64,000 nt of DNA. Source: an uncultured Dehalococcoidaceae bacterium (GTDB taxonomy: Bacteria > Chloroflexota > Dehalococcoidia > UBA2979). Numbering within the stretch: position 1 is the stretch's first letter; each line of letters opens with the position of its first letter. Positions 12,908 to 63,764 of the stretch are shown here, piece by piece. The DNA lies in NCBI GenBank assembly GCA_964479165.1, contig CAYZJO010000013.1, positions 9,386 to 73,385 of the forward strand, written 5' to 3'. A program made the translations under genes and the position numbers. Below the pieces are notes generated by a model. It searched no databases. It was not told where the DNA came from and saw nothing but the letters and a program-made list of their open reading frames with translations.

Positions 12908-13046
12908 CGCCCCCTCCTCTACGGAGTACTTCCGAGCGGCGTGAGAGACGCCCGGAAATGGATCGTACGGATGGCGTCAGATCGATACCGGACGACGCTC
13001 GTGGCTCTGCGCCGTGCGTCCCGACTTCGGGCAGAGCGCCAGCGGC

Positions 13047-14028
13047 TCATCCATCCTCCCGCACGACTTCGCGCGGGTCCTTGTCGGGTCGCAGCCCTTT
13101 GAACGAGGGATGGCGCAGCTGCCCGGTGCGCGAGGTCCACTCGGCGAACTCGACGTCGCACACGAGTCGCGGCTTGACGAAGCGCGATTCGCGCGGCACC
13201 TCGCCACCAGCGAACGGGCTCGTCTCGCGCGCGGGGCGGGCCCAGCAACGCTTCGAGCTCGCCGAGTGTGCGCTCGCTGAAGCCCGTCCCGACCTTGCCG
13301 GCCGAGACGAGGTGATCCCCGTCGTAGGTCCCGATCACGAGCGCGCCGATCTTGCCCGAGCGCGTGCCTTCGCCGGGCACCCAGCCGCCAATGACGAACT
13401 CCTGGCGTTGCTGGTTCTTGATCTTGAGCCAGGTACCGGAGCGCTTTCCCGGCTCGTAGCGGCTGGTGAGCCGCTTCGCGATCACGCCCTCCATGCGTTG
13501 CTCGCGACTCGTCGCCAGGATGAGATCGCCGCCGCCCTCCGACTGTGGCGGCGTGTGCCAGTGCGAGCCGTCGAGTTCGAGCGCCTCGAGCACGGCGCGA
13601 CGTTCGGCGTAGGGCTCGGCGAGGAGCGAGCGCCCGTCGAGCGCGAGCACGTCGAAGATCATGTAGGCGATCCCGACGCCAGGATCGGCTGTGACACGCT
13701 TACCGCCCTCGAGTCCCATGCGCTGATGCAACGCCTCGAACGTCGGTCGCCCGCTCGCGTCGAAGCCCACAATCTCGCCGTCGAGGAGCGCGCTGTGCGC
13801 GCCGAGAGCCGCCGCGAGCGCGCGCAGCTCGGGGTAGCGCCCCGTCATGTCGAGGCGGTTGCGACTGGCGAGGGAGAGTGCGCCACGCTCGATCCGGGCG
13901 ACCGCGCGGATGCCGTCCCACTTGAACTCAAAGCCCCAGCGCCCATCGTCGCGCGGCAACTCCGGCACCGAGCTTCGCGAGCATCGGCACGAGCGGCCGC
14001 GGCTGCGCGGGATCTCCCCGGCGAGCAT
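13047..14028 (-). pseudogene. ATP-dependent DNA ligase (LigC/LigD ligase-domain type) with an apparent 1-nt frameshift near 13215-13235.
   Basis: Start MLAGEIPRS at 14028. Motifs are FEFKWDGIRA (KxDG), EGVIAK and LKIKN. Frame 1 ends ...GELEALLGPPRARDEPVRWW and then becomes Arg-rich nonsense down to 12919. The next frame reads SPFAGGEVPRESRFVKPRLVCDVEFAEWTSRTGQLRHPSFKGLRPDKDPREVVREDG-stop (stop at 13047-13049), which is the canonical ligase OB-fold C-terminus. Confidence 0.6.
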
Positions 14029-14573
14029 TAGGTGGTGGGGCTGGGTTGTCTCGCACAAGCTGATCGTAAGGTCTGCTCGGCGGGAGGCGGTCGTGCTACC
14101 GTCGCCCCCCGGTCGCCTGCGGCCCTGCACAGCAACAGTCCTGCGGGCGGCCGGGACGACGGCGGGATAGACGTGCGCGACGCCGGTGGGGCGTTGTGCA
14201 GCGATGAACCGGACGGCGAGGTTGTAGTGAACGCGCCGCATTACACCCCTGCCGAGGTCGAGTCACTCGCTGCGGCGCTCATGCTCCTGCGCGCCATGGT
14301 CGACGCGGAGACGGGGGGCACTGCTCGAGGGTGCTGCACAGGCGCTCCGGCAGCAGGCCGCGCGGATCGCGACGCTCGAGCGAGTCACGCCTCAATGAAC
14401 GAATGGCAGCGCCTGCAACGGATTGCGGACAACGCGCAGCTCGAGGCGCAGTCGGCACGACGTGGCATCCGCAACGTCTTCCTCTTCGGCCTTGCCTTTT
14501 GGACCACGATCGCCGCGATCCTGGTCGCCGTATGCCGCTGACCCCTCGGAGCTAGGGACCAACCGCCTCCAAA

Positions 14574-14825
14574 GTGGTCTACATGACGTGGCGCCGCGAC
14601 TTCGACCCCTCCGCCAGGCGCGCGGTGGATCTGCGCACGCTGCGGCTGATGGCGTGGCTGCAGAAGCAGGACCGTTACCGCGCGGAGCGTCCGAAGCTCG
14701 AGCGCGGCCACAGGCGGAAGGCTGACATCGTCACGGTCACCTGGTACTTCGAGGCTGCCGACTGGCGAGAAGCGGACAGAGCCGTGCGAGAGATTGAGGA
14801 GCGCCGTGACGCGCCGCGAGGGTAG
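14574..14825 (+). CDS. Hypothetical protein of 83 aa.
   Basis: MVYMTWRRDFDPSARRAVDLRTLRLMAWLQKQDRYRAERPKLERGHRRKADIVTVTWYFEAADW... is protein-like. There is no domain call. Confidence 0.3.
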   Translation: MVYMTWRRDFDPSARRAVDLRTLRLMAWLQKQDRYRAERPKLERGHRRKADIVTVTWYFEAADWREADRAVREIEERRDAPRG

Positions 14826-14834
14826 ACTCGCCAC

Positions 14835-15146
14835 ATGCGCGGGCGGTTCACTCTGACGGACGACAATCGCGAGCGCGTCGCCGCGAGGCTCGGAGTTCCG
14901 GCGGACCAGCTGATCGAGGAGGACTACCGGCCGCGCTGGAACGTTGCGCCCACCGACCCGCGCACTGGATCGTGCGCATCCGCTACGAGGATCGCGAGGC
15001 GCGGGCGGCGAGGTGGGGCTTGGTCCAGTTCGGCTCGAAGGACCCGAAGCGCGCAGCAGCGCAGATCAACGCGCGCGCGGAGGCGAGTTGGCATCCCCGA
15101 CGAACACTAGCCCGCCTGGCTTGTATCGCGCGGGCCACTATCGCTT
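14835..15146 (+). pseudogene. SOS-response-associated peptidase (SRAP/YedK) remnant with a Cys2-to-Arg change, a frameshift and truncation.
   Basis: MRGRFTLTDDNRERVAARLGVPADQLIEEDYRPRWNVAPTDP in frame 1, where canonical SRAP starts MCGRF. HWIVRIRYEDREARAARWGLVQFGSKDPKRAAAQINARAEASW follows in the +2 frame from about 14960, then a stop near 15146. About half of a normal SRAP is present. Confidence 0.5.
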
Positions 15147-15545
15147 GATGGCTCGACGCGCCGATAGATCCTCGTGGGCGGTGGACCGCCGCCAAAGCAC
15201 CAGCAGCCCAATGATGATCAACCAGACCGCGACACGGGACGTCATCGCAAGCATGCTCTCCCTTGCCGGCACGCCCACGACGGTCGAAACCAGGAGCAGC
15301 AAGACGCTCACGTGGACACAGAGCGTCCCAACGGACACCAGGACCGCGAAGCGACTCCTGCTCCAGATCAACACGGTGGGGACGAGGACCGTCCAAAGGC
15401 CGATGGCGAGGTTGTAGATCGGGAGCCATGACAGCACCGTGTATCCCGGCTGCCATCCCTGTGCGGCGCTAGTACCGGCGACGACCGACATTGCCCCAAT
15501 CATCAGGGCGAGCAGGGCGGCCGCTCCACGCGCAAATGTATCCAT
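15138..15545 (-). CDS. Integral membrane protein with four predicted TM helices.
   Basis: 135 aa with hydrophobic helices (LLALMIGAMSVVAG, LAIGLWTVLVPTVLIW, AVLVSVGTLCVHVSVLLLLVSTVVGV, VAVWLIIIGLLVLW). Confidence 0.5.
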   Translation of the reverse strand: MDTFARGAAALLALMIGAMSVVAGTSAAQGWQPGYTVLSWLPIYNLAIGLWTVLVPTVLIWSRSRFAVLVSVGTLCVHVSVLLLLVSTVVGVPARESMLAMTSRVAVWLIIIGLLVLWRRSTAHEDLSARRAIKR

Positions 15546-15632
15546 CGTGTGCCTCTATGTCCGCGGAGACTAGATCGGTTCGCCCTGATCTGCTGAAGAC
15601 GTTTCGCGAGGCTCGGCGGCCAACTAGCCAAG

Positions 15633-16028
15633 TCAGGCGGGTGTGGTGTCGACACGCCCGCGGGGCTCAATGCCGCTCGGGCGCGCGGCCCAGACCAGCA
15701 GGACGCCCAACGCGGCTTGCGCGACCTTGCCTCCGAGGCTCAGCGCGTCGACTGTCCCCGTCCCTCGAACTGCCGACAGTAGGAAGAGGACGAGTACCAC
15801 GGCGTTTACGACCGCACCCAGCAGGAGCAGGCGACGGCCGACGAAGGGAATGGAAATACCCCCGGCGATGTAGGCGAGCCCTGCCGCAAACATGACCGGT
15901 CGCGGGGGGGACTTGAAGTCGTCTGGGACGAAGCCCATGGCGATCGCCAGGTACACCACGCCTGCCGTGACGGCGAAGACTGTGGCGAGGAGCAATACGG
16001 GCTTCGACGTGACAGTTGGACCGTTCAT
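15633..16028 (-). CDS. Integral membrane protein with three to four predicted TM helices.
   Basis: 131 aa: VLLLATVFAVTAGVVYLAIAMGF, MFAAGLAYIAGGISIPFVG, LLLLGAVVNAVVLVLFLLSAV. Confidence 0.5.
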   Translation of the reverse strand: MNGPTVTSKPVLLLATVFAVTAGVVYLAIAMGFVPDDFKSPPRPVMFAAGLAYIAGGISIPFVGRRLLLLGAVVNAVVLVLFLLSAVRGTGTVDALSLGGKVAQAALGVLLVWAARPSGIEPRGRVDTTPA

Positions 16029-16072
16029 CTCAACCTCCTCGAGCGTGGCTCAAGTGGAGCGTCCGCCGATAG

Positions 16073-18256
16073 TCACGGGCGTGAATGCATTGGTGCTGCT
16101 TGGGGGTCACTTGGACCTTCGATCGAAATGCGCGGCAGGCGCCGCTCCAGCCACGAGGGCAACCACCAGTTCCAGTCGCCCATGAGCTCCATCGTCGCCG
16201 GCACCAGCAGCAGTCGCACGACCGTCGCATCGACCAACACGGCGATCGCGAGCCCGAGCCCGAACTCCTTCACGACGCGCTGATCGTTCATCACAAAGCT
16301 CAGAAACACCATGATCATGATCGCTGCCGCCGCCGTGATGACGCTCGCGGTTGCAGCCAACCCGCGTGCGACTGACTTCGCGTTATCACGCGATGCCAGG
16401 TACTCCTCGCGAATCCGGCTCACGAGGAAGACCTCGTAGTCCATGGAGAGGCCGAAGAGCACCGCAAAGAGCATCATCGGCAGGAACGACTCGACCGGAG
16501 CGGACTGGTCGACGCCGACGAAGCGCATCCCCCAGCCCCACTGGAACACCGCCACCACGAACCCGTACGCCGCCCCGATCGAGAGCAGGTTCATTAACGC
16601 CGCCTTCAGCGGGATCAGCAGCGAGCGGAAGACCGCCACCAGCAGGAGGAAGCTCACCCCAATCACGAGGCCGAAGAACAGCGGCAGCCGGGAAGCGATC
16701 CGATCCGCGATGTCAATCGCCCGTGCGGTCGCACCTCCCACGTAGACGCGGGCGTCCGTGTCCGCAGCGTCGAGGGCCGCCGGGAAGACCTGGTCGCGCA
16801 GCTCATGCACCAGGTCCGCGGTCTCGCCTGACTGCGGCGATGTCGCGGGGACCACCGAAAACACGCTGACGTCCCCGGCCGGACCGGCCAACGGTGCGCT
16901 CACCGAGGCCACGTTCGGCAGGCTCGCGATCGCGTCGCGCACCTGTGCCGCTTCCGGCTGCGAGGCACCCTCGATCACGACCTGTAGGGGCCCGTTCATA
17001 CCGGGGCCAAAGGCATCCGCCAGGATGTCGTACGCGCGTCGGGTCGTGGAGCTCGTCGGATTGTTCCCGGCGTCCGCTGTGCCGAGGCGCATGTCGAGCA
17101 CCGGGACGCTCAGCGCCGCCAGAATCGTCACGCTCACGCCAAAGAAGACGTAGGGCCGGCGCATGATCGCCAGCCCGAGTGCGTACCAGCGACTCTGCTC
17201 GTGCGCAACTGCGGGCCGCCTCGAGCCGCGTGGTCCGCCAGAACCCGCGATCCGCGGGCCAATAATGCCCAGGAGCGCCGGCAGCAGCGTCAGCGCCGCC
17301 AGCACAGCGACGGCGACCATCGCGGCAGCGGCGACGCCGAGCCAGCCAACGAAGGGGATCCCCATCAGGCCCAGCCCGAGAAGCGATGTGATCACCACCC
17401 CGCCCGCGAATGCGACAGACTTCCCCGCCGTCGCGAGCGCCGCGCCCACGGCCGCGGCGATGTCGCGCCCCATGAGGACGTTCTCGCGATGGCGCGCCAC
17501 GATGAACAGCGCGTAGTCGATGCCGACGCCCAGCCCGAGCATCGCCGCGATGTTGGGCGCGAACTTGCTGAGGTCGATTGCGGCCGTCATCGCGAAGATC
17601 ACCGCGAACCCGACCGCGAGGCCCGACACCGCGCTCACCACCGGCAGTACCGTGGGCATGAGCGCTCGGAACAACACGTAGAGGATGAGAAGCGCGGCCA
17701 TCAGGCCGAGGACGGTCGACTCGTTCGGCCCCTCGCGCTCCAGTGCCGCCGGGACCGGACCACCGAGCTCGACCGTTAGCGCACTCGAGCGGGCGGCCCC
17801 GGCGAGCCCCTCGAGCGCCTCGGTGGCCTCGGCCGGGACATCGTCGGCGCCCTGCGCGAACTGCACGCGCATCAGCGCCACGGTGCGATCAGCCGACACG
17901 ATCGCGTTTGGCTGTGCGAACGGCGAAGCCACGCCGACGACCCCAGGGAGGGACGCGACGTCACGCGCAAGCGTCTCGATCGCGGTCCGCGTCTCGTCCG
18001 TGTCGATACCACCCGCGGCTTCGAAGATCACATCGGCGTAGTCGCCCGAGCGCTGCGGGAACGAGCGCTGCAGCACCTCGACCGCCCGCTGCGACTCGGC
18101 GCCGGGGATGGTGAGTGTGTTCGCCGTGCCCACCGAAATCGATCGCGCGGTGAGGCCGAGTGCCGCACCGGCCACAAGCCAGACCGCGACGACCTGCCAG
18201 CGGTACCGGACTGCGCTGCGGCCCCAGCGTTCGAGGAGACTCGCGCTATCGTGCAT
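16073..18256 (-). CDS. MMPL-family RND transporter (MmpL-like).
   Basis: About 727 aa from ATG at 18256 (MHDSASLLERWGRS...; RBS GGAGGAA). Two blocks of multi-TM domains with large periplasmic loops. This architecture is typical of MmpL. Confidence 0.85.
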   Translation of the reverse strand: MHDSASLLERWGRSAVRYRWQVVAVWLVAGAALGLTARSISVGTANTLTIPGAESQRAVEVLQRSFPQRSGDYADVIFEAAGGIDTDETRTAIETLARDVASLPGVVGVASPFAQPNAIVSADRTVALMRVQFAQGADDVPAEATEALEGLAGAARSSALTVELGGPVPAALEREGPNESTVLGLMAALLILYVLFRALMPTVLPVVSAVSGLAVGFAVIFAMTAAIDLSKFAPNIAAMLGLGVGIDYALFIVARHRENVLMGRDIAAAVGAALATAGKSVAFAGGVVITSLLGLGLMGIPFVGWLGVAAAAMVAVAVLAALTLLPALLGIIGPRIAGSGGPRGSRRPAVAHEQSRWYALGLAIMRRPYVFFGVSVTILAALSVPVLDMRLGTADAGNNPTSSTTRRAYDILADAFGPGMNGPLQVVIEGASQPEAAQVRDAIASLPNVASVSAPLAGPAGDVSVFSVVPATSPQSGETADLVHELRDQVFPAALDAADTDARVYVGGATARAIDIADRIASRLPLFFGLVIGVSFLLLVAVFRSLLIPLKAALMNLLSIGAAYGFVVAVFQWGWGMRFVGVDQSAPVESFLPMMLFAVLFGLSMDYEVFLVSRIREEYLASRDNAKSVARGLAATASVITAAAAIMIMVFLSFVMNDQRVVKEFGLGLAIAVLVDATVVRLLLVPATMELMGDWNWWLPSWLERRLPRISIEGPSDPQAAPMHSRP

Positions 18257-18376: not shown

Positions 18377-19063
18377 GTGACCACCCATCAGCATCCGGAG
18401 CGTGACCTCGTTGAGCGGCTGGCGATGGTCCCGCTCTTCTCCGGCCTTCCGCCCGAGTTCCTGCGGCTGCTCGCTGAAGCCGCCATCGCTCGTGACTACG
18501 AGGCCGACCAGGTCGTGTTCGTCGAAGGCGAGTCCTCGCCCGGGCTGTTCGTGATCGAGTGGGGACATATGAAAGTGGTGAAGGCTTCGCCGCAGGGCCG
18601 CGAGCACATCCTCGAGGTGCTGGGGCCTTCTCAGCCGGCGAACGCAGTCGCTGTCCTCACGAGCCGCCCGAGCCCCGCGACGGCGATCGCGCTTGAGCCC
18701 ACGCGGACGTGGCTCCTACCGCGGGGGGCGGTGGCCCAGCTCCTGCGCGATCACCCCGCGTTCGCCGCCAGCCTGATCGAGGACATGGCCAACCACATGG
18801 TCCACCTCGTCGACCTCGTCGCCGACCTCTCGCTGCGATCGGTCATGGAGCGCCTTGCCAAGCTCCTCCTCGAGGAGGCTATCGATGGCGTCCTGGTGCG
18901 TCCCCGCTGGCTAACGCTTCCCGAGCTCGCCGCACGGCTCGGCACCGTGCCCGACGTGGTGCAGCGCGCCCTCGGCCGGCTGGCCGCCGACGGCGTCGTC
19001 GAAATCGATCGCCGCGAAGTCCGCATTCGGGACCGGCGGAGGCTCCAAAAGCTCGCGGGCTGA
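18377..19063 (+). CDS. Crp/Fnr-family transcriptional regulator (cNMP-binding domain plus C-terminal HTH).
   Basis: GTG at 18377 gives a 228-aa protein. It reads MVPLFSGLPPEFLRLLAEAAIARDYEADQVVFVEGESSPGLFVIEWGHMKV...RSVMERLAKLLLEEA...LTLPELAARLGTVPDVVQRALGRLAADGVVEI. It is transcribed divergently from the MmpL gene. Confidence 0.8.
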   Translation: MTTHQHPERDLVERLAMVPLFSGLPPEFLRLLAEAAIARDYEADQVVFVEGESSPGLFVIEWGHMKVVKASPQGREHILEVLGPSQPANAVAVLTSRPSPATAIALEPTRTWLLPRGAVAQLLRDHPAFAASLIEDMANHMVHLVDLVADLSLRSVMERLAKLLLEEAIDGVLVRPRWLTLPELAARLGTVPDVVQRALGRLAADGVVEIDRREVRIRDRRRLQKLAG

Positions 19064-19798
19064 GCGCACGCTTCTCCTCGTCGGGCGCATCCTGCTGCAT
19101 CGACGTCAGCAATGCGCGGCACGAGCGAGACTGGAAGGCTGTCCCGAAGGCGCGGGGGCTCACGGCTGATGGCGACGCGAGGCCCCATGCGAACTCGCCC
19201 TGCGTCTCCCTGGTGAAGCCGCCCGATGAGGCAAGCCGGATACGGATCGAGGACGCCCCCGGAGGCCGGAGCCGTGGCCGACCGGGCCGCCGAGAGATGG
19301 AGCCCGCCGCGCCCGGCTGTCCTCCCTCGGAGGTGGAACTGCGCTATCCAGCGCTGCAGCGACTCACCGCGCGCTCTCTGGAGGCGCAGCCGCCCGAACG
19401 CAGTCAGTCCTTCGCCGAGACCAGAGTCGGTCTGCCACTCCAGATAGCGGTCGCGCACGGTTCGTTAGACGGCACGAGGAAGGCGGCCCGGTGATCGGAC
19501 CCCCGAACGTGTGAGCCTTCCATCTGGCGGGTCTGAAACGCGACTGCGATCCTCGACAGCTGCACATAGCCCATGCGAGCGCTGGAACGTCAATGCCTGC
19601 GTCTTCAAGCACGGCTGTTCCGACTCCACCACCGTGCTACCACCGCGCTATCAGGCTTCAAGTCCTACGGCACGGAGTGACCTCAGACCCGAGAAGAGCC
19701 GCAGAGAGGCTGGGCGGCTCCTACACTGACCTGGCTACGATGGTGCAGTTGGGTACGGCCCTCCCGTACAGCGAGGCTTTAGCCAGGGAAGGAAGTAA

Positions 19799-20218
19799 AT
19801 GACAGCCGAGAGGCCGAAGAATGAGCATGAGTTCATCGCGTATCCCACGGGCTACCTCTTCGCGGTGGTCGATGACCGGACTAACGCGGACGCGCTAGTT
19901 CGGGAACTCGAAGAGGCCGGCGTCGAGCGCTCGGCGATGCTGCGGTTCACGGGGGAGGAGGGCGCGCGGCGCATCGATGCCTCCGGGACGGACCATGGCA
20001 TCCTCGCACGGCTCCTGCGGCTGCTTGAGTACGCCGACGACTCGCGCCTACAAGCCGAGGCGTATGAGCGCGAGGCCCGTGCGGGACATTGCGTGATAGG
20101 CGTCCACGCGCCAGAGACGGATCGACGAGACCACCTGCGGGCGCTCGTCAAGGCCCACGGCGGGCACACGATCAATTACTACAGCCCCGCTGGATTCACA
20201 GAAACGCTCGACCCCTAG
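19799..20218 (+). CDS. Hypothetical protein of 139 aa.
   Basis: ATG preceded by GGAAGGAAG. The composition is protein-like and the GC is lower than its surroundings. No domain recognised. Confidence 0.55.
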   Translation: MTAERPKNEHEFIAYPTGYLFAVVDDRTNADALVRELEEAGVERSAMLRFTGEEGARRIDASGTDHGILARLLRLLEYADDSRLQAEAYEREARAGHCVIGVHAPETDRRDHLRALVKAHGGHTINYYSPAGFTETLDP

Positions 20219-20612
20219 GTCGGTCTGACCGCAGAGCATGAGGGAGCGGCCTAGCTGCCCCGAAGTGTGCCGCGGGTAGCGCCCGTTGGGCCTGGCCGCG
20301 AAGGCTGCGTTCGTGGACGACGTGCGACGCAGCCTATGCGTAGAGATCGCTCGGTTGGAGCCGAACTGGCCGCCGCTGTCACACCTCGTGGGAGGGCGGA
20401 CGACGCATGGCTTGAAGTGTTGTTGCACCCGAACGGCTCCTCTGACGGCCTGTAAGCGGAGTACACCGACTCGGGTAGTGCAACAGCACCTCTGTCGGCA
20501 AGGATGCCGGATACACGAGTCGAGGCGCGACGCAGCCGCGCCTCGACTGTCAGATGGAGGTTCCTCGCCCATCGTGGATGATGGTGTATTGCGGCGGTCG
20601 GTCTGGACTTGG

Positions 20613-21005
20613 CTAGACGTTGGCGAGCGCGCGCGCGAGTCGCTGTCTCGCCTCGAGGCCGACCTCTTCGATGGTGAGGGATTCGGACGCGAGCACACGC
20701 ATCCCCACCGTCGGGTCAAAGACGGAGATCACGCTATCGTCGCCGTCGGCATATACGACTACGTTGCAGGGCAAGAGCGTACCGAGGCGCAGGTCTTCCT
20801 CGAGGGCCCTATGTGCGAGCTGGGGATTGCACGCCCCAAGGATTACATAGTCCCGGAACTCGATCCCGAGCTTCTCGCGCATCGTCGCCTTCACGTCGAT
20901 CTCTGTGAGCACGCCGAAGCCCTCCTTCTGGAGCGCGTCCTTCATTCGACTAACGGCCTCTGGGTAGCGAAGCGGCACACGTTTCTCCATCGCGATGTCG
21001 GGCAT
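20613..21005 (-). CDS. DUF302-family protein.
   Basis: ATG at 21005 follows GGAGG. MPDIAMEKRVPLRYPEAVSRMKDALQKEGFGVLTEIDVKATMREKLGIEFRDYVILGACNPQLAHRALEEDLRLGTLLPCNVVVYADGDDSVISVFDP matches the DUF302 fold signature. Confidence 0.7.
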   Translation of the reverse strand: MPDIAMEKRVPLRYPEAVSRMKDALQKEGFGVLTEIDVKATMREKLGIEFRDYVILGACNPQLAHRALEEDLRLGTLLPCNVVVYADGDDSVISVFDPTVGMRVLASESLTIEEVGLEARQRLARALANV

Positions 21006-21311
21006 TCTGACCTCCATGCAGGGCGTGTCTCGGTTTGCAGCTAGATGGTGACAGGTTGCCCGGTCACACGATGTTGCGATAGCGGCGCCGTAAACGGCCC
21101 CGCGCCCGACACGTTCTTCCGGAGCGTGACGCTGCCTCACGGTCGACGAAGTGCGCAGGTGCTCTGGCTGCGATCGGTCCCATGAGCATTGCCATAGCCG
21201 AGGATGCGCTAGATCAAGATCAGCGACTCGGCGCAGTCCGCCGGATCAGCCAGCGAAGTGCGTCCTGGGTGCCTCATCCAAGCGCCTCAGGTCGGGGACG
21301 ACGGAGGGCAC

Positions 21312-22292
21312 GTGCGTACCCAGCAGCTCGAGACGCGGGTCTACGAAGCGGGAGCCCTTCTGGTCGAGGGCTTCCCGCTCGCTGATGTCTCGGATCACTT
21401 GGCGCACGCTGACCGTCTCGTCTGGGTAGACCTCTGTCGTCCTTCAGAGCGACAGCTCACGCAACTTGCCGAGGAACTCGGGCTCCACGAGCTTGCCATC
21501 GAAGATGCGCTGGAGCCGAATCGACGGCCGAAGCTCGACCGGTACGAAAGCCACGTGTTTCTCTCTGCCCGAGCCGTGCAAGCGGACGCTGACGCTGGCG
21601 AGCTGCGCGAGGCGGAACTCGGCGTCTTCGCCGGCGACCGCTGGCTCGTGACCGTTCGACAGGACGAGTCGTTCGATATGAGCGCGGTTGTCGAACGTTG
21701 GGGGCGCTCACATCCGCTTACCGCAGAGGGCGTCACGTTTCTCATGCACTGCCTGCTGGACGTGGTCGTCGACGGCTACTTCGACGCCCTCGAAGTCTTC
21801 GATCGGTACTACGACGAGGTGAGCGACGGCATCTTCTCAGAACAGCCAGTCGAGCCATCGCGGCAGCGCCATTGGTTCCAAATGCGGCAGGCTCTCGTGC
21901 GGTTCCACCGCATGATCAGCCCGACCCGAGAGATCATCAGCGCCCTGATGCGGCGCGAGCACCAGCTACCGGAAGCGCTCTACCCCTACTACCAGGACCT
22001 CTACGACCACGCCCTGCGCGTGGGTGAGTCGACCGAGACGCTCCGTGAGCTCGTCAGCACCATCGTCGAGACGAACCTTGGCCTGCGTGACTACCGCCAG
22101 AACCAGATCATGAAGAAGGTGACGAGCTGGGCTGCGATCATCGCGGTACCCACGCTCATCACGGGCTACTACGGGATGAACGTCCCGTATCCGGGCAGCG
22201 GCGCGCCGTGGGGGGTCGCGCTATCTGCCGGGCTGATCGCGTCCCTATCTGGAGCGCTCTACCTGCTCTTCCGACGCAATGACTGGCTGTGA
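21312..22292 (+). CDS. corA: CorA-family Mg2+/Co2+ transporter.
   Basis: The C-terminal two TM helices carry the YGMNV (GMN) motif. The N-terminal soluble domain is present. The start is uncertain (GTG at 21312 or 21258). Confidence 0.85.
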   Translation: MRTQQLETRVYEAGALLVEGFPLADVSDHLAHADRLVWVDLCRPSERQLTQLAEELGLHELAIEDALEPNRRPKLDRYESHVFLSARAVQADADAGELREAELGVFAGDRWLVTVRQDESFDMSAVVERWGRSHPLTAEGVTFLMHCLLDVVVDGYFDALEVFDRYYDEVSDGIFSEQPVEPSRQRHWFQMRQALVRFHRMISPTREIISALMRREHQLPEALYPYYQDLYDHALRVGESTETLRELVSTIVETNLGLRDYRQNQIMKKVTSWAAIIAVPTLITGYYGMNVPYPGSGAPWGVALSAGLIASLSGALYLLFRRNDWL

Positions 22293-22299
22293 GGTGCCC

Positions 22300-53794: not shown

Positions 53795-53866
53795 CAATGT
53801 GACGCTAGTGCTGCTTCGGCAACTTCCTGCAGCACTCTCGCCGTCTATCGCTAGGCCCACACGGCC
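53795..53866 (+). repeat. Copy 1 of an imperfect direct repeat of about 72 bp in the intergenic region between the sigma factor and the kinase.
   Basis: ATGTGAcGCTAGTGCTgCtTCgGCAaCtTcctGCAGcACTCTCGCcGTCTATCGCTaGGCCCACaCGG is about 80% identical to 54322-54393. Confidence 0.5.
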
Positions 53867-54321
53867 CTGAACAGCTCCCGCGTCCCGCCTCGATCCGCAT
53901 CACCATCTGCGCGCCGCTCCACGACTCGAGGATCAGATCGTGCCACGACGACTGGTTAGGCACGTGGGAACGGCCCGCGGCGGCGCAACACGCCCCCCCT
54001 TGAATTGGTTTCGAATTGTCGGTTCGGCTGCGGACGGGAAGCAACACCGGGGGCTCGAGCTAGCGGGCTGCACGCTAGGGACAGGACAGCCCGCCAGCTC
54101 TTGCTGAGGCCATCGCAGGCTAGACCCGCTGCATCTCCATTCCGCAGCAGCACCGAGGCGCCTGATCCCCGCCAGCGGGCCCGGCCCCCTTTGTTACAGT
54201 GATCTCGCATCCGCAGTTCTCCATCATGCACCGATATGTCTCACCCTGCTGCAAGGCCATTCCCACCCTCCTGGCACTACAGGATAAACGCTAGGGCGTC
54301 GTGCAAGGCCAGCAGATGTGA

Positions 54322-54393
54322 TTGCGGTAGTGCTACGTCCGCAGCCTACGGCAGGACTCTCGCGGTCTATCGCTGCGCCCACGCGGAACCTGC
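54322..54393 (+). repeat. Copy 2 of the intergenic direct repeat of about 72 bp.
   Basis: ATGTGAttGCggTAGTGCTaCgTCcGCAgCcTacgGCAGgACTCTCGCgGTCTATCGCTgcGCCCACgCGG. Confidence 0.5.
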
Positions 54394-54422
54394 GCGGTTC
54401 GGCTCGCAAGCGTCTCGCCACA

Positions 54423-55695
54423 TCAAACATCCGCTGCGAGGGGGATGGTGAAGCCTAACCGAGCCCCTTTAACGGCCTCCGAGGCGGCCATTACGGAGCC
54501 CCCGTGAGCGCTGACAGTGCCATGGACAATCGCAAGGCCAAGCCCGACTCCGTCGCTGCCCGCCGAGCGCGTCCGCGATCGCTCAGCCCGGTAGAAGCGG
54601 TCCCAGATTCTCGGGAGGTCAGCAGACGCGATGCCGTCGCCCGTGTCCTCGACGAGGACCGAGGCCATGTCGGCATCCTTCGACGCGCGAACTCGCACCA
54701 CTCCGCCGGACGGGGTGTGTTCGATGGCGTTGACGATGAGGTTGCGAATGGCCCGTTCGATCAGGAAGCCGTCCACGAACGTGAGAACTTGCTCGGCCGG
54801 TGGCGCGAACACGACCGCCACGCCGGCGGACCGTGCTTGGGCCTCGACCGCTTCGGTGACCTCCCGCGCGATCTCCTCAAGGGCGACAGTTCGTCGCTCG
54901 AGCCGCACCGCGCCCGAGTCAAACTGCGCGAGCTGGAACAAGTCGTCGACCAGGCGCGAGAGGCGCTCGACATCGGCGGCGAGGGATCGGTAGTACCGAG
55001 CCCGATCTGCCGGTGCGGTGATCAGCTCGTCTGCCAGGGCCTCGATCATGGCGCGCATGCTGCCCAGCGGCGTGCGCAAATCGTGCGAGACGGCGGCAGT
55101 CATGTCACGGCGCTCACGCTCGATCGCTGCCCGGTCAGCCTCGGCGTCGCGCAGCCGGCGTGCGAGGAGGTTCACGTCGGCGGCAAGCTCGGACAGCTCG
55201 TCCCCCGCGGGCACCCGAACGTCCTCGTCGTAACGGCCGTCCGCGAGCGCCTGGATTCCCTTTGTGATCGTCGCGACACGAGTCGAGAGCCGCGCCGCCA
55301 CCCAGAGGCTGAAGCCGGCGGCGATGATCCCGCTGCTGAGCGTCAGCGCCGCGAGCAGGCCGAGGTCGTGCGACGTGGAGACGAACATGAGGCGCGCCAC
55401 GACCAGTACGTTGAGGAGTCCCGCGACCGAGCCGACGATCGCGCCCAGTGCGATCAGCGAACCCAGCCTGAGCCCGAGCCGCTGCGTCGACCAGTGGAAC
55501 GCCGCCGCGCCCAGCGCGATGCTCGCGGCGCCCGAGACTAGCACGTAGACAGCGAGCGCACGGAGGTCATGAGACGGTGGGGAGAAGAGGAACTGGGCGG
55601 CCAGGACACTCGACAAGCATGCGGCGGCGAGTAGTAGCGCCGCACGGCGAACATCCTCGAGAGCCCAGTCGCGGAGACTCTGCTGACCCGTCATG
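54423..55695 (-). CDS. Sensor histidine kinase (TM-HAMP-HisKA-HATPase, OmpR-type partner).
   Basis: VSHDLRTPLGSMRAMIEAL H-box. A C-terminal ATPase with GLGLAIVHGTVSAHGG. Its start overlaps the stop of the response regulator. Confidence 0.85.
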
Positions 55696-56380
55696 GCTCG
55701 AGCTTGTACCCCACGCCCCACACGGTCTTGAGGTGGCGAGGCCGAGAGGCGTCCCGCTCGGTCTTCGCGCGCAGCCTCCGAACCGTAACGGTGACGGTGT
55801 TGAGGTCGCCATCGAAGTCTTGCGTCCAGACACCCTCCGTCAGTTGCTCTCGGGTGAAGACCTGAGCGGGATGGCTCGCGAGGTACAGCATGAGGTCGAA
55901 CTCCCTGGCAGTAAGTCCGACGGTCCGTCCACCGACATCCACTCGCCGCGTCGTGGGATCGATCGTGATCTCGCCGACGCGCAGTTCGGCCGACTCGCTT
56001 CCACCTGCGTCTGAGCGACGCGTGCGACGGAGCACGGCGTCGACACGAGCAACGAGCTCTCTGGGACTGAACGGCTTGGTTACGTAGTCGTCAGCGCCAA
56101 GTCCGAGACCGTGGATCTTATCGGGCTCGCTCGAACGAGCCGTTAGCAGGATGATCGGCGTCTCCGACTGTTCGCGTACACGTCTGCAGACATCGAGGCC
56201 GTCGATCCGCGGGATCATAATGTCCAGAACGATCAGGTCAGGACGTTCGGCCTCGAATCGCTCGATTGCAGAGAGCCCATCATGCACGACCTCGACGGCG
56301 TATCCATCGCGCCTCAGATAACGCGCGACGACCTCCGCGACCATCGGCTCGTCCTCGACGACCAGCACCTTTGCGTGCAT
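55691..56380 (-). CDS. OmpR/PhoB-family response regulator.
   Basis: MHAKVLVVEDEPMVAEVV...LIVLDIMIPRIDG...winged helix LTAREFDLMLYLASHPAQVFTREQL...TVWGVGYKL. Confidence 0.9.
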   Translation of the reverse strand: MHAKVLVVEDEPMVAEVVARYLRRDGYAVEVVHDGLSAIERFEAERPDLIVLDIMIPRIDGLDVCRRVREQSETPIILLTARSSEPDKIHGLGLGADDYVTKPFSPRELVARVDAVLRRTRRSDAGGSESAELRVGEITIDPTTRRVDVGGRTVGLTAREFDLMLYLASHPAQVFTREQLTEGVWTQDFDGDLNTVTVTVRRLRAKTERDASRPRHLKTVWGVGYKLEP

Positions 56381-56479
56381 CTGTGCCTCGCCGATCTGCG
56401 GAATGATCGGAACGCGGCCACGATACGGGGGAGGGTCGTCTGACCCTCCCCCTGTTTCGCACGCGTACACAACCGAAGA

Positions 56480-56788
56480 CTAGGGGTTTACCGGGTTCCA
56501 GATCGGAGTAAACCCGTCGGCACCGGGACGGTTCGTGGCCGACGGGGTCCCGTTCTCGTTGAGGCCGTTTTCGTTGGCGTGGCCGCCGGCCTGCTCGTTG
56601 CCCGGAAGGAAGGTCGCCCCGCCCCCAGGGAACGGGTTCGCGTCGAGCTTGGGGGAGTTGAGAACCCCCTCGCCGACCACCGAACAGATGAACGCGTTGG
56701 GGTCTCCGGTGTGGTCTGCGGAGGCCACCCCTGTCGCTGCACCGACCAGGGTCAGCGCCGCGAGACCGCTGAACAGGATCTTCTTCAA
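56480..56788 (-). CDS. Small secreted protein with a Sec signal peptide. Function unknown.
   Basis: AAGGAGGAAG RBS. MKKILFSGLAALTLVGAATGVASA, then a Gly/Asn/Pro-rich 75-aa mature part. First gene of the OmpR-type two-component operon. Confidence 0.65.
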   Translation of the reverse strand: MKKILFSGLAALTLVGAATGVASADHTGDPNAFICSVVGEGVLNSPKLDANPFPGGGATFLPGNEQAGGHANENGLNENGTPSATNRPGADGFTPIWNPVNP

Positions 56789-56996
56789 CCTCTTCCTCCT
56801 TCTTGCTGGAGCGGTGGAAGGAGATCGTCGCCCGAAAACCTTACGAAACTGTGACAGAGAGACGGAGACCGAGTGGGCGACATGCAGAGGCGACCCCAGA
56901 CGATGCCGCCACCGTGAACACCCCGAACTAGACCGAGACCCGCCGCCGGAGCCGATGGTTCAGATCAATGCGTCTCGAAGGAGTTGAGATCGGTCC

Positions 56997-57392
56997 CTAG
57001 GGCGACATGCACGTAGACCTCGAAAACCTTCGAACCAGCGGATCGTCCACCTCGATGAACTGGACGTCCCACGCCGCTACCAACGCCTTTGCCTCGGCGA
57101 AGTGCTGCGCGAACTCCGGGTCGGACTCGAGCTTGGCGCGGGTCTGACGGGCGAGTTCACTCCCCGCCTCCGCACAGCCGCCCCGGGCCATAAGGAACGC
57201 GAGAGTTGCGCTGCAGTGTGTTCCACTCGGCCGAGTGTGTTGTCCGAGGCGCGTTCGTAGGTTGCGCGTCTGCCCAACGTAACGGTACTGACCGCCATCG
57301 CTAAATAGATAAATGCCGGGCGCTGCAGGCACGCTGCCCCGTGCACGCGGCGCACGAGGTCGCGCGAACAACTGCTCAAGGAGCGGACGCAT
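56997..57392 (-). CDS. GIY-YIG nuclease-domain protein of about 131 aa.
   Basis: APGIYLFSDGGQYRYVGQTRNLRTRLGQH... The upstream part of the 436-aa track ORF looks spurious. Confidence 0.6.
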   Translation of the reverse strand: MRPLLEQLFARPRAPRARGSVPAAPGIYLFSDGGQYRYVGQTRNLRTRLGQHTRPSGTHCSATLAFLMARGGCAEAGSELARQTRAKLESDPEFAQHFAEAKALVAAWDVQFIEVDDPLVRRFSRSTCMSP

Positions 57393-57399
57393 CTTCGAC

Positions 57400-58640
<1,241 letters not shown>

Positions 58641-58656
58641 ATCTCTCGCTGTCCCC

Positions 58657-60573
58657 CTAGACGATAGTGCCCCACTGACCGTTACCCAGGTATGTCGTGG
58701 GCGCGCCTTCGTCCAGCCAGACAGAGCGTGCCTTCGCGTCACCGTAGCAACTGAAGACGGAGGCCACGCTCGCCGGCCGGAAGTTGATCATGTAGTTGTG
58801 CCAGAAGATGCGGTTCATCCCCGTGCCCGGGAAGAAGACCTCCCAGACCTGGTCAAAGATGCGAGTCTCGATGTCCTTCCAGATCTGGAGCTTCGCCTCT
58901 TCGTTGGTCTCCTGCCGCTGCGCCGTGACGAGCCGGTCCATCTCGGCGTCGTTCACGTTGTTGTGGTTCAGGCCGCCCGTCGAGTGGTACCAGGGGTACA
59001 CCGCCTGGTCGACCGCGTACACAGGCGGCCCCCAGGTGATGTTCATGGTGTCCTCGAAGTCTCGCGCGTTGAGCATGCTCACCGCCGTCGGGTTGTCGAC
59101 CTCGCGGATGTTCGCGCGGATCTCTGGAACCTCCGCGTACATCGGACCCATGAGCGAAGCGTACTGCTCGCGCTGGTACCACGCCGGGAAGTCCACGACG
59201 ATCGGGTTGGCCTCGCTGTAACCAGCGGCCTGCAGCAGCTGGCGGGCCTTCTCGCGGTCGAACTGGTACCACTCGCCCTGATCGCCGTACTGCGGCCGCG
59301 TCTCGTAGAGGTACGGCCACGGGATAGGCGAGCGCACGCCGCCGTTGTTCTCGCCGTTGTAGCGGGCGAGATCCCACTCCTGGAAGTCGAGAGCGAGGGC
59401 GAACGCACGGCGCACGCGCTCGTCCGCGAACTTCGGATTCGTCATCTGGAAGTGGAAGCCCTCGGTGTTCGCCCCCACCACGGACTCGTACTTAAGATAG
59501 ACGGAGTCCTTGCTCTGCTGGAGCATCGACTCTGCCTCAGCGTCGTCGCGCGCGGACCAGTAAAAGAAGTTGTCTGTGGTGTAGCCGGCCTTCTGCACTG
59601 CCGTGTCGTTCTGCACCACAGTGATCACGCGGTCCATGTACGGCAGCCCGGTCTCGAAGTAGTCCGGGTGCTTCACAAACTCAGAGCGCTCCTTCTGGAT
59701 CCAGGTCTCCTGGATGAAGGGGCCGGTGCCAACCGCATGCTCGGTCAGGAAGTCGATGTCCTCGAGCATCTCCTTGGCGTCCATGTGGGACCAGGCCGCG
59801 ATGTTACGCGGGAAGTCGCTGATCGGCTGTCCCAGGGTCAGCACCACAGTGTAGTCGTCGGGCGTCTCGATCTCGGTGACGTCCGTCCACATGTCCTTCT
59901 GGACACCTCCCGAGCGGTAGCGCTCTGCGGAGAGACGCACGTCTTCGGAGGTGAACTCACGGCCCATCGTGGGCTCGACGTTGTGGAACTTCACGCCCTG
60001 GTGCAGGTGGAACGTGTACTGCAGGCCGTCCGGGGTCGACTCCCACGACTCGGCGAGGTCGGGCTCGATCTGGATGCGGCGGTTGTCCGCCTGCGGCCCG
60101 AATTGCCCGCGGGTCAACTTGTTCTTCGTGAAGTCCATCGTGGAGTTCACGGTGCACGAGAGCGTGCGGTTGAAGTCCATGTGCGGCGGGTCGAGGTACC
60201 GGGCCATGAGCGTGCCGCCGTAGCGGGCGTTGTTGGCCGGGTCGAGCTCCCCAGGGGTCGGCGGGATCGAACCCTCGTAGGCGCCCGGCGCGATGCGGAT
60301 CTGGTCCGAGGGCAGCGGACCGCCACCTGGCGCAGCCGTCCCGGTACCCTCGCCGCCGCTCGGCGCCGCGGTCGCGGGCGTTCCCGCGTCGTCGTCACCC
60401 CCGCAACCGAAGAGTGCGAGGCCCGCGAGGCCAGCGACCCCAACCCCAGCACCGCGTAGGGCCCCGCGCCGGCTCAGCGTGCGCCGGCTCCAATAATTTC
60501 CTCCTGGCAAGTTCGTGCCTCCCAGCACCCCCTGACCGACCGAGCGGTCGGCTATGGCCGAATGGAATATCAC
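58657..60573 (-). CDS. ABC-transporter substrate-binding lipoprotein, family 5 (OppA/DppA/NikA-like), with a Tat/lipobox signal. It is orphaned from permease genes.
   Basis: SRRTLSRRGALRGAGVGVAGLAGLALFGCGG. 638 aa with an SBP_bac_5-like body. No ABC permease or ATPase genes follow. The next downstream feature is the IS110 element. Confidence 0.85.
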   Translation of the reverse strand: MIFHSAIADRSVGQGVLGGTNLPGGNYWSRRTLSRRGALRGAGVGVAGLAGLALFGCGGDDDAGTPATAAPSGGEGTGTAAPGGGPLPSDQIRIAPGAYEGSIPPTPGELDPANNARYGGTLMARYLDPPHMDFNRTLSCTVNSTMDFTKNKLTRGQFGPQADNRRIQIEPDLAESWESTPDGLQYTFHLHQGVKFHNVEPTMGREFTSEDVRLSAERYRSGGVQKDMWTDVTEIETPDDYTVVLTLGQPISDFPRNIAAWSHMDAKEMLEDIDFLTEHAVGTGPFIQETWIQKERSEFVKHPDYFETGLPYMDRVITVVQNDTAVQKAGYTTDNFFYWSARDDAEAESMLQQSKDSVYLKYESVVGANTEGFHFQMTNPKFADERVRRAFALALDFQEWDLARYNGENNGGVRSPIPWPYLYETRPQYGDQGEWYQFDREKARQLLQAAGYSEANPIVVDFPAWYQREQYASLMGPMYAEVPEIRANIREVDNPTAVSMLNARDFEDTMNITWGPPVYAVDQAVYPWYHSTGGLNHNNVNDAEMDRLVTAQRQETNEEAKLQIWKDIETRIFDQVWEVFFPGTGMNRIFWHNYMINFRPASVASVFSCYGDAKARSVWLDEGAPTTYLGNGQWGTIV

Positions 60574-60784
60574 GATGTTCGATAGGAGTGCAATAGTGCA
60601 TGCGACGAGTTGTCATAGCGGGCTGGACACGATTACGAGCGTGCTCTATGTTCCGACAGTCGTCAGCGAGGCCGCTTGGTACGCACTGCTCGCGACACAA
60701 ACTCGCCAGTACCCTCTGGGGCATGGGGGCCGGGTAACCGGCCCTCGTGCTTTCAGCGGCCCAACTTGTGGGGACTCGTGCCCG

Positions 60785-62080
60785 CTAACCCCCGCCGCCT
60801 CCGCTATACGGGCGTGCCTCCGGGCCCTGAGCGTCGGGCAGAGAAGCGATCCCATAGGCTTCAGCCTGAAACGCTTCGCCCAAGGCTTCGTCGAGTAGTC
60901 GGACCTGGTGCTCGAGAGGGCTTCGCCGGGATGCGGGGGCGCGCGCCAGGAGGTCGTCGAGCAGGAACCGCATCCGTCTCATCACTTGAAGCGACCCACT
61001 CCCGTACGAGCGGATCTCGTCCAACGCGAGTGCAACGTAGGCGCCCCATCCTGGCCTCGGGACAACGAGGCGCACCCTACCGTCCACGGCGGTTCGCTGC
61101 GAAGCAGGGAAGTCTCTGCCAGCCAACACCAGCAAGAGATCATGCAACTGGTCCAGTACCTGAACGGCCGTCGTCGGGTCGTTCACGCCGGGGGACAAGG
61201 CACGGACAGCGATGTCAACCAGCTGGCGGAAGCCGAATGCCGCATCCTGCTGCATGGTCCGCGCCACACCAACGGCCAGGACCGACCGCATCGCATCGTC
61301 GCTGATGGTGTCCGAACTGCCTTTTGCAAGCGCGAAGACTGAACCGCGGCCGACGAAGTCCCCCACCATGGGAACGAGCTCGATCACGGCGTCGCTCTCG
61401 TCGCACAACGCGAGGAGCCGGCGCTCATCGACGCCTGTCAGAACGCCGGAGCGGCGGTCCCAGTTGAAGGAGCGGGCTGGCCCTTCCCTCGTCTGCGGGA
61501 GCGGCTCAGTTGACTCTGCCGGATCCCCGAGCGTCTCCGGGTAAAGGCGCTCAATCGTCTCCAAGGTCTCGCTTCCGACGCGCTCAATGATCGTGCTGAC
61601 CCGAATCGACTGCGCGATGTGGTTGATGAAGTAGACGAACGCCGCGATGCTCGCGAGAGCGGCCAAGAAGGCTGCCCACGTCGCAGCCCCAGGAACGAAG
61701 TCGTCGCGCACCTCGCGCAGCACGAGGAGTGCATACGTGAACGTGCCAATGAACAGAGCGAGCACGATCTGATTGTGGCGATCCCGGAGGAACGTGCGCA
61801 TGACACGCGGCGATAGCTGACTGGAGGCGAGCTGCAGCACAAGCATCGTCACGGAGAAGCCCAGCGTCGCCATCGTCAGCGTGCTCGTGGAGATAGCGGC
61901 TAGAAAGCCGCGCGCGCTCTCCGCTCCACCTTGAAAGACGAACCAGCCCGTCCGGTCTCCATCGAGCTGCCGATCAACAGCGATGAGCGCGCGCTGGAGA
62001 ACGGCCGCGATCACCACGCCGAGGCCGGGCAGTACCCAAAGGCTCTCGCGTAGTCGGTCCAGAACGACGCCGAGGCGCAT
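60785..62080 (-). CDS. DUF2254-family membrane protein.
   Basis: N-terminal TM helices. ...ALSPGVNDPTTAVQVLDQLHDLL, typical of DUF2254. 431 aa. Confidence 0.7.
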   Translation of the reverse strand: MRLGVVLDRLRESLWVLPGLGVVIAAVLQRALIAVDRQLDGDRTGWFVFQGGAESARGFLAAISTSTLTMATLGFSVTMLVLQLASSQLSPRVMRTFLRDRHNQIVLALFIGTFTYALLVLREVRDDFVPGAATWAAFLAALASIAAFVYFINHIAQSIRVSTIIERVGSETLETIERLYPETLGDPAESTEPLPQTREGPARSFNWDRRSGVLTGVDERRLLALCDESDAVIELVPMVGDFVGRGSVFALAKGSSDTISDDAMRSVLAVGVARTMQQDAAFGFRQLVDIAVRALSPGVNDPTTAVQVLDQLHDLLLVLAGRDFPASQRTAVDGRVRLVVPRPGWGAYVALALDEIRSYGSGSLQVMRRMRFLLDDLLARAPASRRSPLEHQVRLLDEALGEAFQAEAYGIASLPDAQGPEARPYSGGGGG

Positions 62081-62142
62081 GCGGTCACCTCCGAGGAGGA
62101 AGCGTACGCCCTACGAGCAGGGACAGACTAAGAACTCGGTCT

Positions 62143-63154
62143 GTGCGTACGCCCGCGATGCACCGAAAGCTTCCCTCGCACGTGATCAGCTGCCGAGGGT
62201 CGTTCAGAGGAGGCGGTGAGCGGGTAGGCACCCCTGCATGGGGGCTAACTCGCACGGTCTACGCTAATGGCGTGGAGGACACGAAGATCTCGTTGTGGGG
62301 GAGGCTCGCCGACACGGAGCGGCGCGGGCGCGTGCAGCAGAGGGTTACGGCGTGGTTCGACGTCACCCTCTCTGTGCTGGCCGTCGTGGTCGTCGTCCTG
62401 ATCATCCTCGAACTAGCGGCGCCGCTGAGCGAGGCATGGACCGCTCGTCTCGCACGGATGCAGCTCGCAATCTGGGCCGTGTTCGTCGTGGCATTCCTCA
62501 TCGAGTTGTACCTCGCACCCTCGAAGCCGCAATACCTCCGCGAGCACTGGCTCGTCGCGCTCTCGCTTGCTCTACCACTGCTCCGCATCTTCCGGGTGGT
62601 TCGCGGACTACGCGTGCTGCGCGGAGCCCGTGCTGCACGTGGGCTCACCGTCGCACGAGTCGTCTCGGCTTTGAACCGGGGCACGCGGAGCCTGCGTCGC
62701 TTCATCGTCGTGAGCAGGTTCGCCTATCTGCTGGCTCTTACGGTACTCGGGACAATGGTCGCGGCAGCAGCAAGCTTTTACCTCGAACGAGGAGCACCAC
62801 AGGCGACCATCACCAACTTCGGCGAGGCGCTCTGGTGGTCGGCCACCGTGGTCACGACAGTGAACTCCCCCCCTTGAAACGGTGACGCTGGAGGGCCGGG
62901 TTGTCGCCCTCGCGCTGCGCATCTTCGGAGTGGCCGTGATCGGCTACCTCACGGCGCACATCGCCGTGTTCCTGCTCGGTGAGCAGATCGGCGCTCAGAC
63001 TGAGGGAGCTGCAACCACCGAAGCTTTGCAAGTTCTTCGAGACGAGATCGCACAGTTGCGGAAGGCAGTCGAACTTGGAGCTGACTCCGCCAGCGGTAAT
63101 GCTGAGCCAACGGAGGAGGCTTCACCTCTCCGCTCAGTTAGAAATCGCTCGTAG
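62143..63154 (+). pseudogene. Voltage-gated ion-channel-family protein (S4 sensor plus pore), interrupted at a C7 homopolymer at about 62866-62872 (track ORFs 62143..62877 and 62882..63154).
   Basis: S4: LRIFRVVRGLRVLRGARAARGL. Pore helix: FGEALWWSATVVTTVNSPP-stop. S6 follows in the next ORF: TLEGRVVALALRIFGVAVIGYLTAHIAVFLL. Deleting one C joins the two frames. Confidence 0.55.
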
Positions 63155-63219
63155 CTGCGAGTGCGTCCGAGAACGTCTGCGGGAGTTGGCCTCGCGCGGC
63201 TGGCACGAATCGAGACGAC

Positions 63220-63764
63220 TTGCTTGACCTTGGAGTTGAGACATTGTTCTTCGACAGTTGGTTTGGGCTGCTGCGCGTAGTGATCGTCGGTTCGCTCGCC
63301 TACCTGTTCCTCGTGATCGTCCTGCGAGGCACCGGTAAGCGGACCTTGTCGAAGCTCAACGCCTTCGATCTCATCGTAACGGTGGCTCTGGGCTCCACGC
63401 TCGCGACCGTTCTGCTCTCCGAGGATGTGGCCTTGGCAGAGGGGTTGGCCGCGTTCGGGCTGCTTGCCGGACTACAGTTCATCATCACGTGGGCGTCCGT
63501 CCGCTCGGGAACGGTGCGGCGTCTCGTGAAGTCGGAGCCGCGTCTGCTCGTCTCGCGCGGAGAGCCACTTGTAGGAGCAATGCGGGAGGAGCCGTGACGC
63601 GCGAGGAGATTCTCGCTGCGGTTCGAGGGAGCGGCCATCCCACCCTCAACGAGGTGCGCGCCGTCGTCCTCGAGACCGACGGTTCGCTCAGCGTCATCGC
63701 CTCCGCGGGCGGGGTCGAGAGTCTACCAGAGGTCCAGGACGACTCGCGCCAACAGACTCTCTAG
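63220..63764 (+). pseudogene. DUF421/YetF-family membrane protein with an apparent frameshift near 63580-63600.
   Basis: Frame 1: KRTLSKLNAFDLIVTVALGSTLATVLLSEDVALAEG...PLVGAMREEP-stop. Frame 2: VTREEILAAVRGSGHPTLNEVRAVVLETDGSLSVI. Together these match the DUF421 N-terminal TM region and C-terminal domain. Confidence 0.6.

Follow-up and report, generated by a model that had tools for sequence, protein, structure and literature searches.

A 64,000-nucleotide (nt) stretch of contig CAYZJO010000013.1 (positions 9,386 to 73,385; hereafter the window), from an uncultured high-GC Chloroflexota bacterium that is Dehalococcoidia/Tepidiformaceae-like, contains a series of unrelated genes, including a DNA ligase and an ion channel, whose reading frames are broken. 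Are these breaks errors of the assembly, or are the genes decaying in the organism? A preliminary description of the sequence had set indel error beside a decaying, pseudogene-rich island and had chosen neither. Our analysis argues for decay and against error, and does not bear out an island in the strict sense: the frame breaks are very probably those of true pseudogenes, with indels of 1–2 nt that would have gone to fixation in dispensable accessory genes of a chromosomal stretch rich in insertion sequences (IS).

Nine frame breaks in eight genes

The window was translated in three frames, each junction was repaired by joining its two frames, and the resulting proteins were compared with Pfam and NCBIfam models. 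All eight frame breaks named in the preliminary description are present in the sequence, and in all eight genes one protein family is matched on both sides of the junction in different frames, in agreement with its claim that the downstream frames carry the expected motifs. Specifically, a single Pfam domain spans the repaired junction in seven cases, with one domain in each frame in the case of the IS110 transposase, and four repaired proteins (ligase, prolyl aminopeptidase, IS110, and IS6) exceed the curated NCBIfam cut-offs, each as one unbroken match. The count of eight stands, but a second break in the ligase, near its N terminus, had been missed, and the analysis therefore covers nine junctions (Table 1). 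Two positional details also change: the 30.73 kb given for IS6 copy 2 is the stop of the upstream frame, not the point at which the frames cross, and the histidine-kinase site falls before the start of the range 12919–63764 given for the whole set. The net frame changes are mixed, with five junctions at +1 and four at −1. Homologue alignments back three specific events, namely the N-terminal insertion in the ligase, the change from C6 to C7 in the channel, and the deletion in the peptidase; intact relatives consisting of a single open reading frame (ORF) are on record for the same three genes. All split products of the broken genes, including both DUF421 fragments, can be found in NCBI as well as in Logan.

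As encoded, the ligase is split over three frames. The extra G of the N-terminal break directly follows the residues PMLAKL; intact orthologues read PMLAKLVPTLPRDD at this point, and the window has PMLAKL in one frame and VPELPRDDG in the next. The C-terminal break throws the RHPSFKGLRPDK segment out of frame, a segment that we take to be motif VI of the OB domain. Motif VI of ATP-dependent ligases is needed for adenylylation. The repaired protein scores 274.2 bits against TIGR02779 (cut-off 227.75; profile 1–301/302) and matches DNA_ligase_A_C over its full length across the junction (profile 1–94/94). The intact relatives P0001 and P0003 are 83% and 78% identical, respectively, and a 440-amino-acid (aa) ligase ORF is on record from an NCBI contig. 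A reading with the 5′ ATG (MLAGEIP...) as the true start, and hence no N-terminal frameshift, was considered and ruled out, since the alignment with orthologues and with TIGR02779 starts at PMLAKL, in the other frame. Lacking an in-frame C-terminal motif, the ligase as encoded should be treated as inactive, and hence not be counted as functional, unless the frameshift is bypassed.

The extra C of the channel gene lies right after the pore-loop motif TTVNSP. The channel as encoded ends two codons past this motif, and the pore-lining helix that follows it in all relatives is out of frame. Repair of the frame restores TTVNSPLETVTLEGRVVAL, which equals the family consensus; the nearest intact relative, P0121, is 77% identical. 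Judged from its sequence, the channel without the inner helix should likewise be treated as inactive, and therefore not be counted as functional, unless the frameshift is bypassed. The preliminary description had cautioned that a functional ligase and a functional channel hang on the nature of the breaks; both genes read as inactivated, the one with its motif segment and the other with its pore helix out of frame. A separate feature of the channel family (window 62854–62890; P0121–P0142) is a conserved pore loop, TTVNSPLExVTxEGR, that replaces the TVGYG signature of potassium channels and places the channel in a non-canonical Ion_trans subgroup.

The remaining genes differ in how much of them is left. 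The picture of single frame disruptions does not extend to the SRAP and histidine-kinase genes, which are also truncated remnants: the histidine kinase retains only the C-terminal half of HATPase_c, and its N-terminal domains are missing. In the SRAP remnant of the window strain, Cys2, the catalytic residue in the SRAP family, is replaced by Arg (MRGRF). The prolyl aminopeptidase is broken by a deletion at a point where homologues read PHAGDxxxDLSTNTT; the repaired protein scores 340 bits against TIGR01249 (cut-off 260) and covers Abhydrolase_1 (profile 4–239/245), and an intact relative, P0199, is 72% identical. The break in the IS110-family transposase lies between its DEDD domain and its Transposase_20 domain, and the repaired protein scores 175 bits against NF033542 (cut-off 140). 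The repaired transposase of IS6 copy 2 scores 199 bits against NF033587 (cut-off 125) and covers DDE_Tnp_IS240 (profile 2–133/139); comparison with IS6 copy 1 suggests that its break is likely a gain of a GC dinucleotide in a GCGCGC stretch.

By our own tally of Logan gene calls and ORFs, about 8 of about 65 gene-like features in the window (about 12%) are broken, including 6 of about 27 in the interval 9.5–31.4 kb. We rate this density as high because a pseudogene share of 1–5% is usual in free-living bacteria.

Table 1. Broken genes and other features of the window, with the position and nature of each frame break
Feature	Coordinates	Strand	Frame break	Basis
Histidine-kinase remnant	9546–9723	−	net +1 at about 9660–9680	frames; HATPase_c profile 46–109/111 across junction
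NHEJ (non-homologous end joining)-type ATP-dependent DNA ligase (LigD ligase domain only), two frameshifts	13050–13987	−	net +1 at 13226–13240; one extra G at about 13967–13968	frames, Pfam, TIGR02779, orthologues
SRAP (SOS-response-associated peptidase) remnant	14835–15085	+	net −1 at 14960–14969	frames, Pfam SRAP profile 1–83/214
IS110-family transposase gene, broken	22581–23601	+	net +1 at 23245–23250	frames, Pfam, NF033542
Prolyl aminopeptidase (proline iminopeptidase) gene, broken	26083–27041	+	1-nt deletion at about 26322–26331	frames, Pfam, TIGR01249, homologues
IS6 copy 2 transposase, broken	30541–31358	−	frames cross at 30786–30789	frames, Pfam, NF033587
Ion_trans-family channel gene, broken	62332–63154	+	one extra C (C6 to C7) at 62867–62873	frames; Ion_trans profile 3–223/241 across repaired junction
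DUF421/YetF-family gene, broken	63220–63764	+	net −1 at 63591–63594	frames; DUF421 profile 3–70/129 across repaired junction
Truncated tRNA-Gly(CCC), D-arm to 3′ acceptor, 5′ acceptor strand absent	9972–10037	+		Rfam
IS3/IS481-like transposase gene, rve_3 (integrase-core) domain, frame uninterrupted	10539–11570	+		Pfam rve_3
IS6 copy 1, uninterrupted transposase ORF, 272 aa	29620–30438	+		internal reference for copy 2
DUF1731-only open frame (profile 4–45/47)	37927–38610	−		six-frame Pfam; no upstream epimerase domain in any frame

Recurrence of the breaks in single-run assemblies and in a second strain

The preliminary description had pointed to independent data as the arbiter between error and decay. 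We compared the window with Logan contigs, which were found by exact-protein look-ups of intact neighbouring genes and each of which is assembled from a single sequencing run (SRR12234141, SRR12234142, or SRR12234145). The contigs cover positions 5893–9703, 10009–14027, 14857–16511, 18907–27135, 29892–42614, 45679–58807, and 60466–64000, that is, about 47 of the 64 kb, and differ from the window by 0 gaps and by no more than 2 mismatches per contig. The coverage includes all nine junctions, and at each of them the contigs of the three runs are identical to the window. In particular, contigs with 100% identity span the histidine-kinase site (L099, 5893–9703), both ligase breaks (L003, 10009–14027), the SRAP break (L008 and L009), the IS110 and prolyl aminopeptidase breaks (L005, 18907–27135), the IS6 copy 2 break (L001, 29892–40837), and the channel and DUF421 breaks (L004, 60466–64000). 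Logan contigs are k-mer graph assemblies made run by run, and perfect contigs of 8–17 kb are not obtainable from noisy long reads.

The sequence context of the breaks points the same way. Only one of the nine junctions, the channel C7, lies in a homopolymer (a run of at least 5 bases). The window contains 18 runs of at least 6 identical bases, 17 of which are away from junctions; G7 at 15904–15910 and C7 at 40874–40880, for example, sit within uninterrupted genes. The breaks are thus neither lost in separate assemblies, nor enriched in homopolymers, nor evenly spread, the three marks by which an artefact of long reads would be recognized.

Two side observations concern the runs and contigs themselves. 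The longest homopolymer of the window, C8 at 32682–32689, lies inside a 264-aa ORF (32089–32883) without a family match, and the gene call for this ORF is the same in the Logan contig. Logan contigs of several runs stop at the same points (9703, 10009, 14027, 14785/14857, 27135, and 29892); some of these ends are at repeats (the tRNA fragment and IS6), whereas 9703, 14027, and 14785 are not and may mark strain-variable breakpoints.

A second strain, represented by runs SRR27710303, SRR27710305, and SRR27710306 of one series and SRR35570586 of another, is 98.7–99.7% identical to the window over 10009–14368 (about 99.3%) and matches it without an indel at both ligase junctions. Its ligase has in addition gained a C at 13686 and lost a G at 13527, which leaves 53 codons out of frame (protein P0037); in all, 2 indels and 2 substitutions separate the ligase pseudogenes of the two strains. 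The second strain also has the SRAP frame break and truncation, yet retains the start MCGRF in place of MRGRF (contigs L007, L010, and L006 have the same break with MCGRF). All six strain differences over 14785–16460 fall inside the SRAP remnant, namely the change from Cys2 to Arg and 5 substitutions within 21 bp at 14887–14907, and the two neighbouring genes for small membrane proteins, like the rest of the flanking 1.3 kb of intact genes, have none.

Since the ligase and SRAP lesions are shared, at least three breaks predate the split of the strains, and, since each strain has a further lesion that is absent from the other, the pattern is that of the neutral decay expected of true pseudogenes. 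Extra disabling changes in a close relative, the sign of relaxed constraint, were thus found in both genes that were compared, the ligase and SRAP.

Upstream of the ligase, strain differences are packed into two dense patches, at 14160–14183 and 14313–14335 (L095, L096, and L098). The former, with 10 changes (indels among them) in 24 bp, resembles the product of a multi-base replacement or a short conversion tract rather than a set of independent point mutations.

Genomic setting of the breaks

Seven of the junctions lie at 9.66–30.8 kb and two at 62.87–63.59 kb, with none at 30.8–62.8 kb. For the interval 31.4–62.2 kb we used a codon-usage Viterbi scan in place of a GC3 frame plot, which is too noisy at this codon bias. 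The scan found no same-strand frame switch without a gene boundary, apart from a possible remnant at about 38 kb, and the gene calls in 31–62 kb look complete. Given nine uniformly distributed events, an empty 32-kb half has P of about 0.002, a value that serves as a rough guide since the interval was chosen post hoc. Five stretches that lack coding signal were scanned with Pfam in six frames, and the DUF1731-only frame was the only hit; this frame, at the position of the possible remnant, is probably what is left of a YfcH-like epimerase and is the sole candidate for decay in 31–62 kb.

The zone at 9.66–30.8 kb also holds a VapBC pair, the rve_3 transposase, the broken IS110, and the two IS6 copies. 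The rve_3 transposase matches the IS3 and IS481 models at E of about 1e-25, under their cut-offs. A 428-aa Logan ORF, P0195, is identical to the read-through ORF of the broken IS110 for 366 residues and then diverges, with a breakpoint near 23679; the same broken IS110 therefore adjoins a different right-hand flank elsewhere, which could be another locus or another strain. A second IS110-family transposase at 57582–58634 (plus strand), with both Pfam domains, shares only about 33% identity with the broken copy. It has an atypical tail after LLAAG, with the conserved continuation in no frame, and may be truncated at its 3′ end.

The zone shares one feature with tRNA-associated islands, in that a 3′ fragment of tRNA-Gly edges a region of transposases, VapBC, and decayed genes. 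The fragment matches the Rfam tRNA model over 10–63/71 at 23.5 bits, under the gathering score of 29, and is not an intact tRNA; it may be the remnant of an attachment site at one edge of the IS-rich zone. Contig L003 begins within the fragment, at 10009, and the 3′ part of the fragment may recur elsewhere in the genome. Unlike in such islands, no integrase gene was identified among the gene calls and Pfam hits of the window, no second copy of the tRNA end was found in the window, and the G+C content of the IS-rich zone (0.64–0.68) is the same as that of its flanks (64–69% throughout the window). A search against known plasmids returned a single 45-bp match, in the MMPL gene. With the tRNA-Gly fragment alone, and no integrase, far repeat, or shift in composition, the zone does not qualify as a classical or tRNA-integrated island.

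The MMPL transporter neighbouring the broken genes has its best match, at 79%, in a metagenome-assembled genome (MAG) of Dehalococcoidia; Candidatus Amarobacter glycogenicus follows at 73%, and MAGs of Tepidiformaceae and Thermoflexaceae are matched too. Orthologous loci reached through MMPL, with one genome per species and the species of the window not among them, are at most 79% identical and do not have the broken genes nearby. Ancestral states were therefore taken from protein homologues.

Decay weighed against its alternatives

Under relaxed selection, decay would proceed by loss of function of one gene at a time, with IS elements disrupting the region as well. The oldest lesions would be those of the histidine kinase and SRAP, now truncated remnants; the ligase, with two to four indels, would be intermediate; and the prolyl aminopeptidase, channel, DUF421, IS110, and IS6 genes, each with a single lesion and a clean downstream frame, would be recent. 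The change from C6 to C7 in the channel would fit replication slippage, and the GC gain in IS6 copy 2 would fit slippage of a dinucleotide.

That the genes are intact in the organism and broken by indel errors, for example in an unpolished long-read consensus, is very unlikely. Long-read assemblies do fragment genes through indels (PMC12007338), and the window resembles such cases in that genes are split into adjacent ORFs in different frames and in that one break, in the channel, is a one-base change in a run of C, a classic error context. It differs from them in that the indels are reproduced run by run, with zero indel differences over about 47 kb, in that a diverged strain, sampled in other run series, has the ligase and SRAP breaks too, in that eight of the nine junctions lie outside homopolymers while 17 other long runs are not at junctions, and in that the breaks are clustered, with 31 kb of the same contig free of them. 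The explanation by long-read error offered in the preliminary description is thus set aside for the junctions as a group. At the channel, the C7 might instead be a phase-variable switch or a population polymorphism, with C6 (on) and C7 (off) cells side by side and the majority allele assembled. A change of homopolymer length in a membrane-protein gene, found at this junction alone, is what such a switch would look like, but each split product (239 and 90 aa) is recorded on three contigs, no intact 290-aa allele of near identity came up in the protein search (the nearest is 77% identical), and the run is located late in the gene, not near its start. A run of seven bases is, moreover, short for a contingency locus. 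In JGI metagenomes, a scan for the channel site that allowed the length of the run to vary gave no match. We consider a switch or polymorphism improbable.

Recoding, by programmed ribosomal frameshifting or transcriptional slippage, could leave some of the genes expressed, possibly including the IS transposases. Programmed frameshifting is known in IS1 and IS3 transposases and in prfB, where, as in the window, two overlapping frames encode one protein, and two of the genes here are transposases. The channel makes the strongest case, through +1 slippage of tRNA-Pro on UCC-CCC-CCU with an in-frame UGA two codons past C7, a context in which +1 slippage is known at a low level. An IS110 that is still active would also account more readily for the identical broken ORF at a different flank. 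However, none of the net −1 junctions shows, by eye, a slippery heptamer of the form X-XXY-YYZ; in the IS110 and IS6 families the models describe single-ORF proteins, and IS6 copy 1 is unbroken; the intact relatives of the non-IS genes (ligase, channel, and peptidase) are single ORFs, and the nearest channel relatives on record do not share the channel break; and the further ligase indels in the sister strain indicate decay rather than a conserved recoding signal. Recoding is, on this evidence, very unlikely. Little weight goes to an unusually indel-prone or patchy mutational regime in the lineage, for which one can cite the 2 indels beside 2 substitutions in the ligase pseudogene, the dense patches of strain differences at 14160–14183 and 14887–14907, and the place of two decayed genes, the NHEJ ligase and SRAP (an abasic-site protein), in DNA repair, or to the separate idea that the channel is partly rescued by +1 slippage on C7.

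Several points weigh against true pseudogenes, or limit how far that reading reaches. For six of the nine junctions, replication comes from runs of one series and not from separate projects. The deposited contig may stem from the same reads as the Logan contigs, and a platform that systematically miscalls homopolymers could reproduce the C7; the channel site is for that reason the least certain junction. In-frame alleles could be mixed within the population, as contigs give no allele frequencies. Finally, local decay cannot be separated from genome-wide decay beyond the window and a further 8 kb.

Frameshift pseudogenes in IS-rich accessory regions are known from Mycobacterium leprae, M. ulcerans, Shigella, Yersinia pestis, and Salmonella Typhi. 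The window resembles these regions in having unrelated genes with one or a few small indels and IS elements between them, and in having lesions of mixed age, some common to close strains and others strain-specific on top. It differs in that its organism is uncultured, apparently free-living, and available from metagenomes only, with no known tie to host restriction or a population bottleneck, and in that the view is one of 64 kb plus 8 kb. The case is a new instance of the familiar accumulation of frameshift pseudogenes, as would be expected, rather than a novel phenomenon.

For annotation, the ligase, channel, prolyl aminopeptidase, DUF421, one IS110, and one IS6 are pseudogenes, which should be neither polished into frame nor counted as functions. 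Public per-run assemblies can tell real frameshifts from assembly errors without raw reads. For the organism, the window documents ongoing decay of accessory genes beside IS elements in an uncultured Chloroflexota population.

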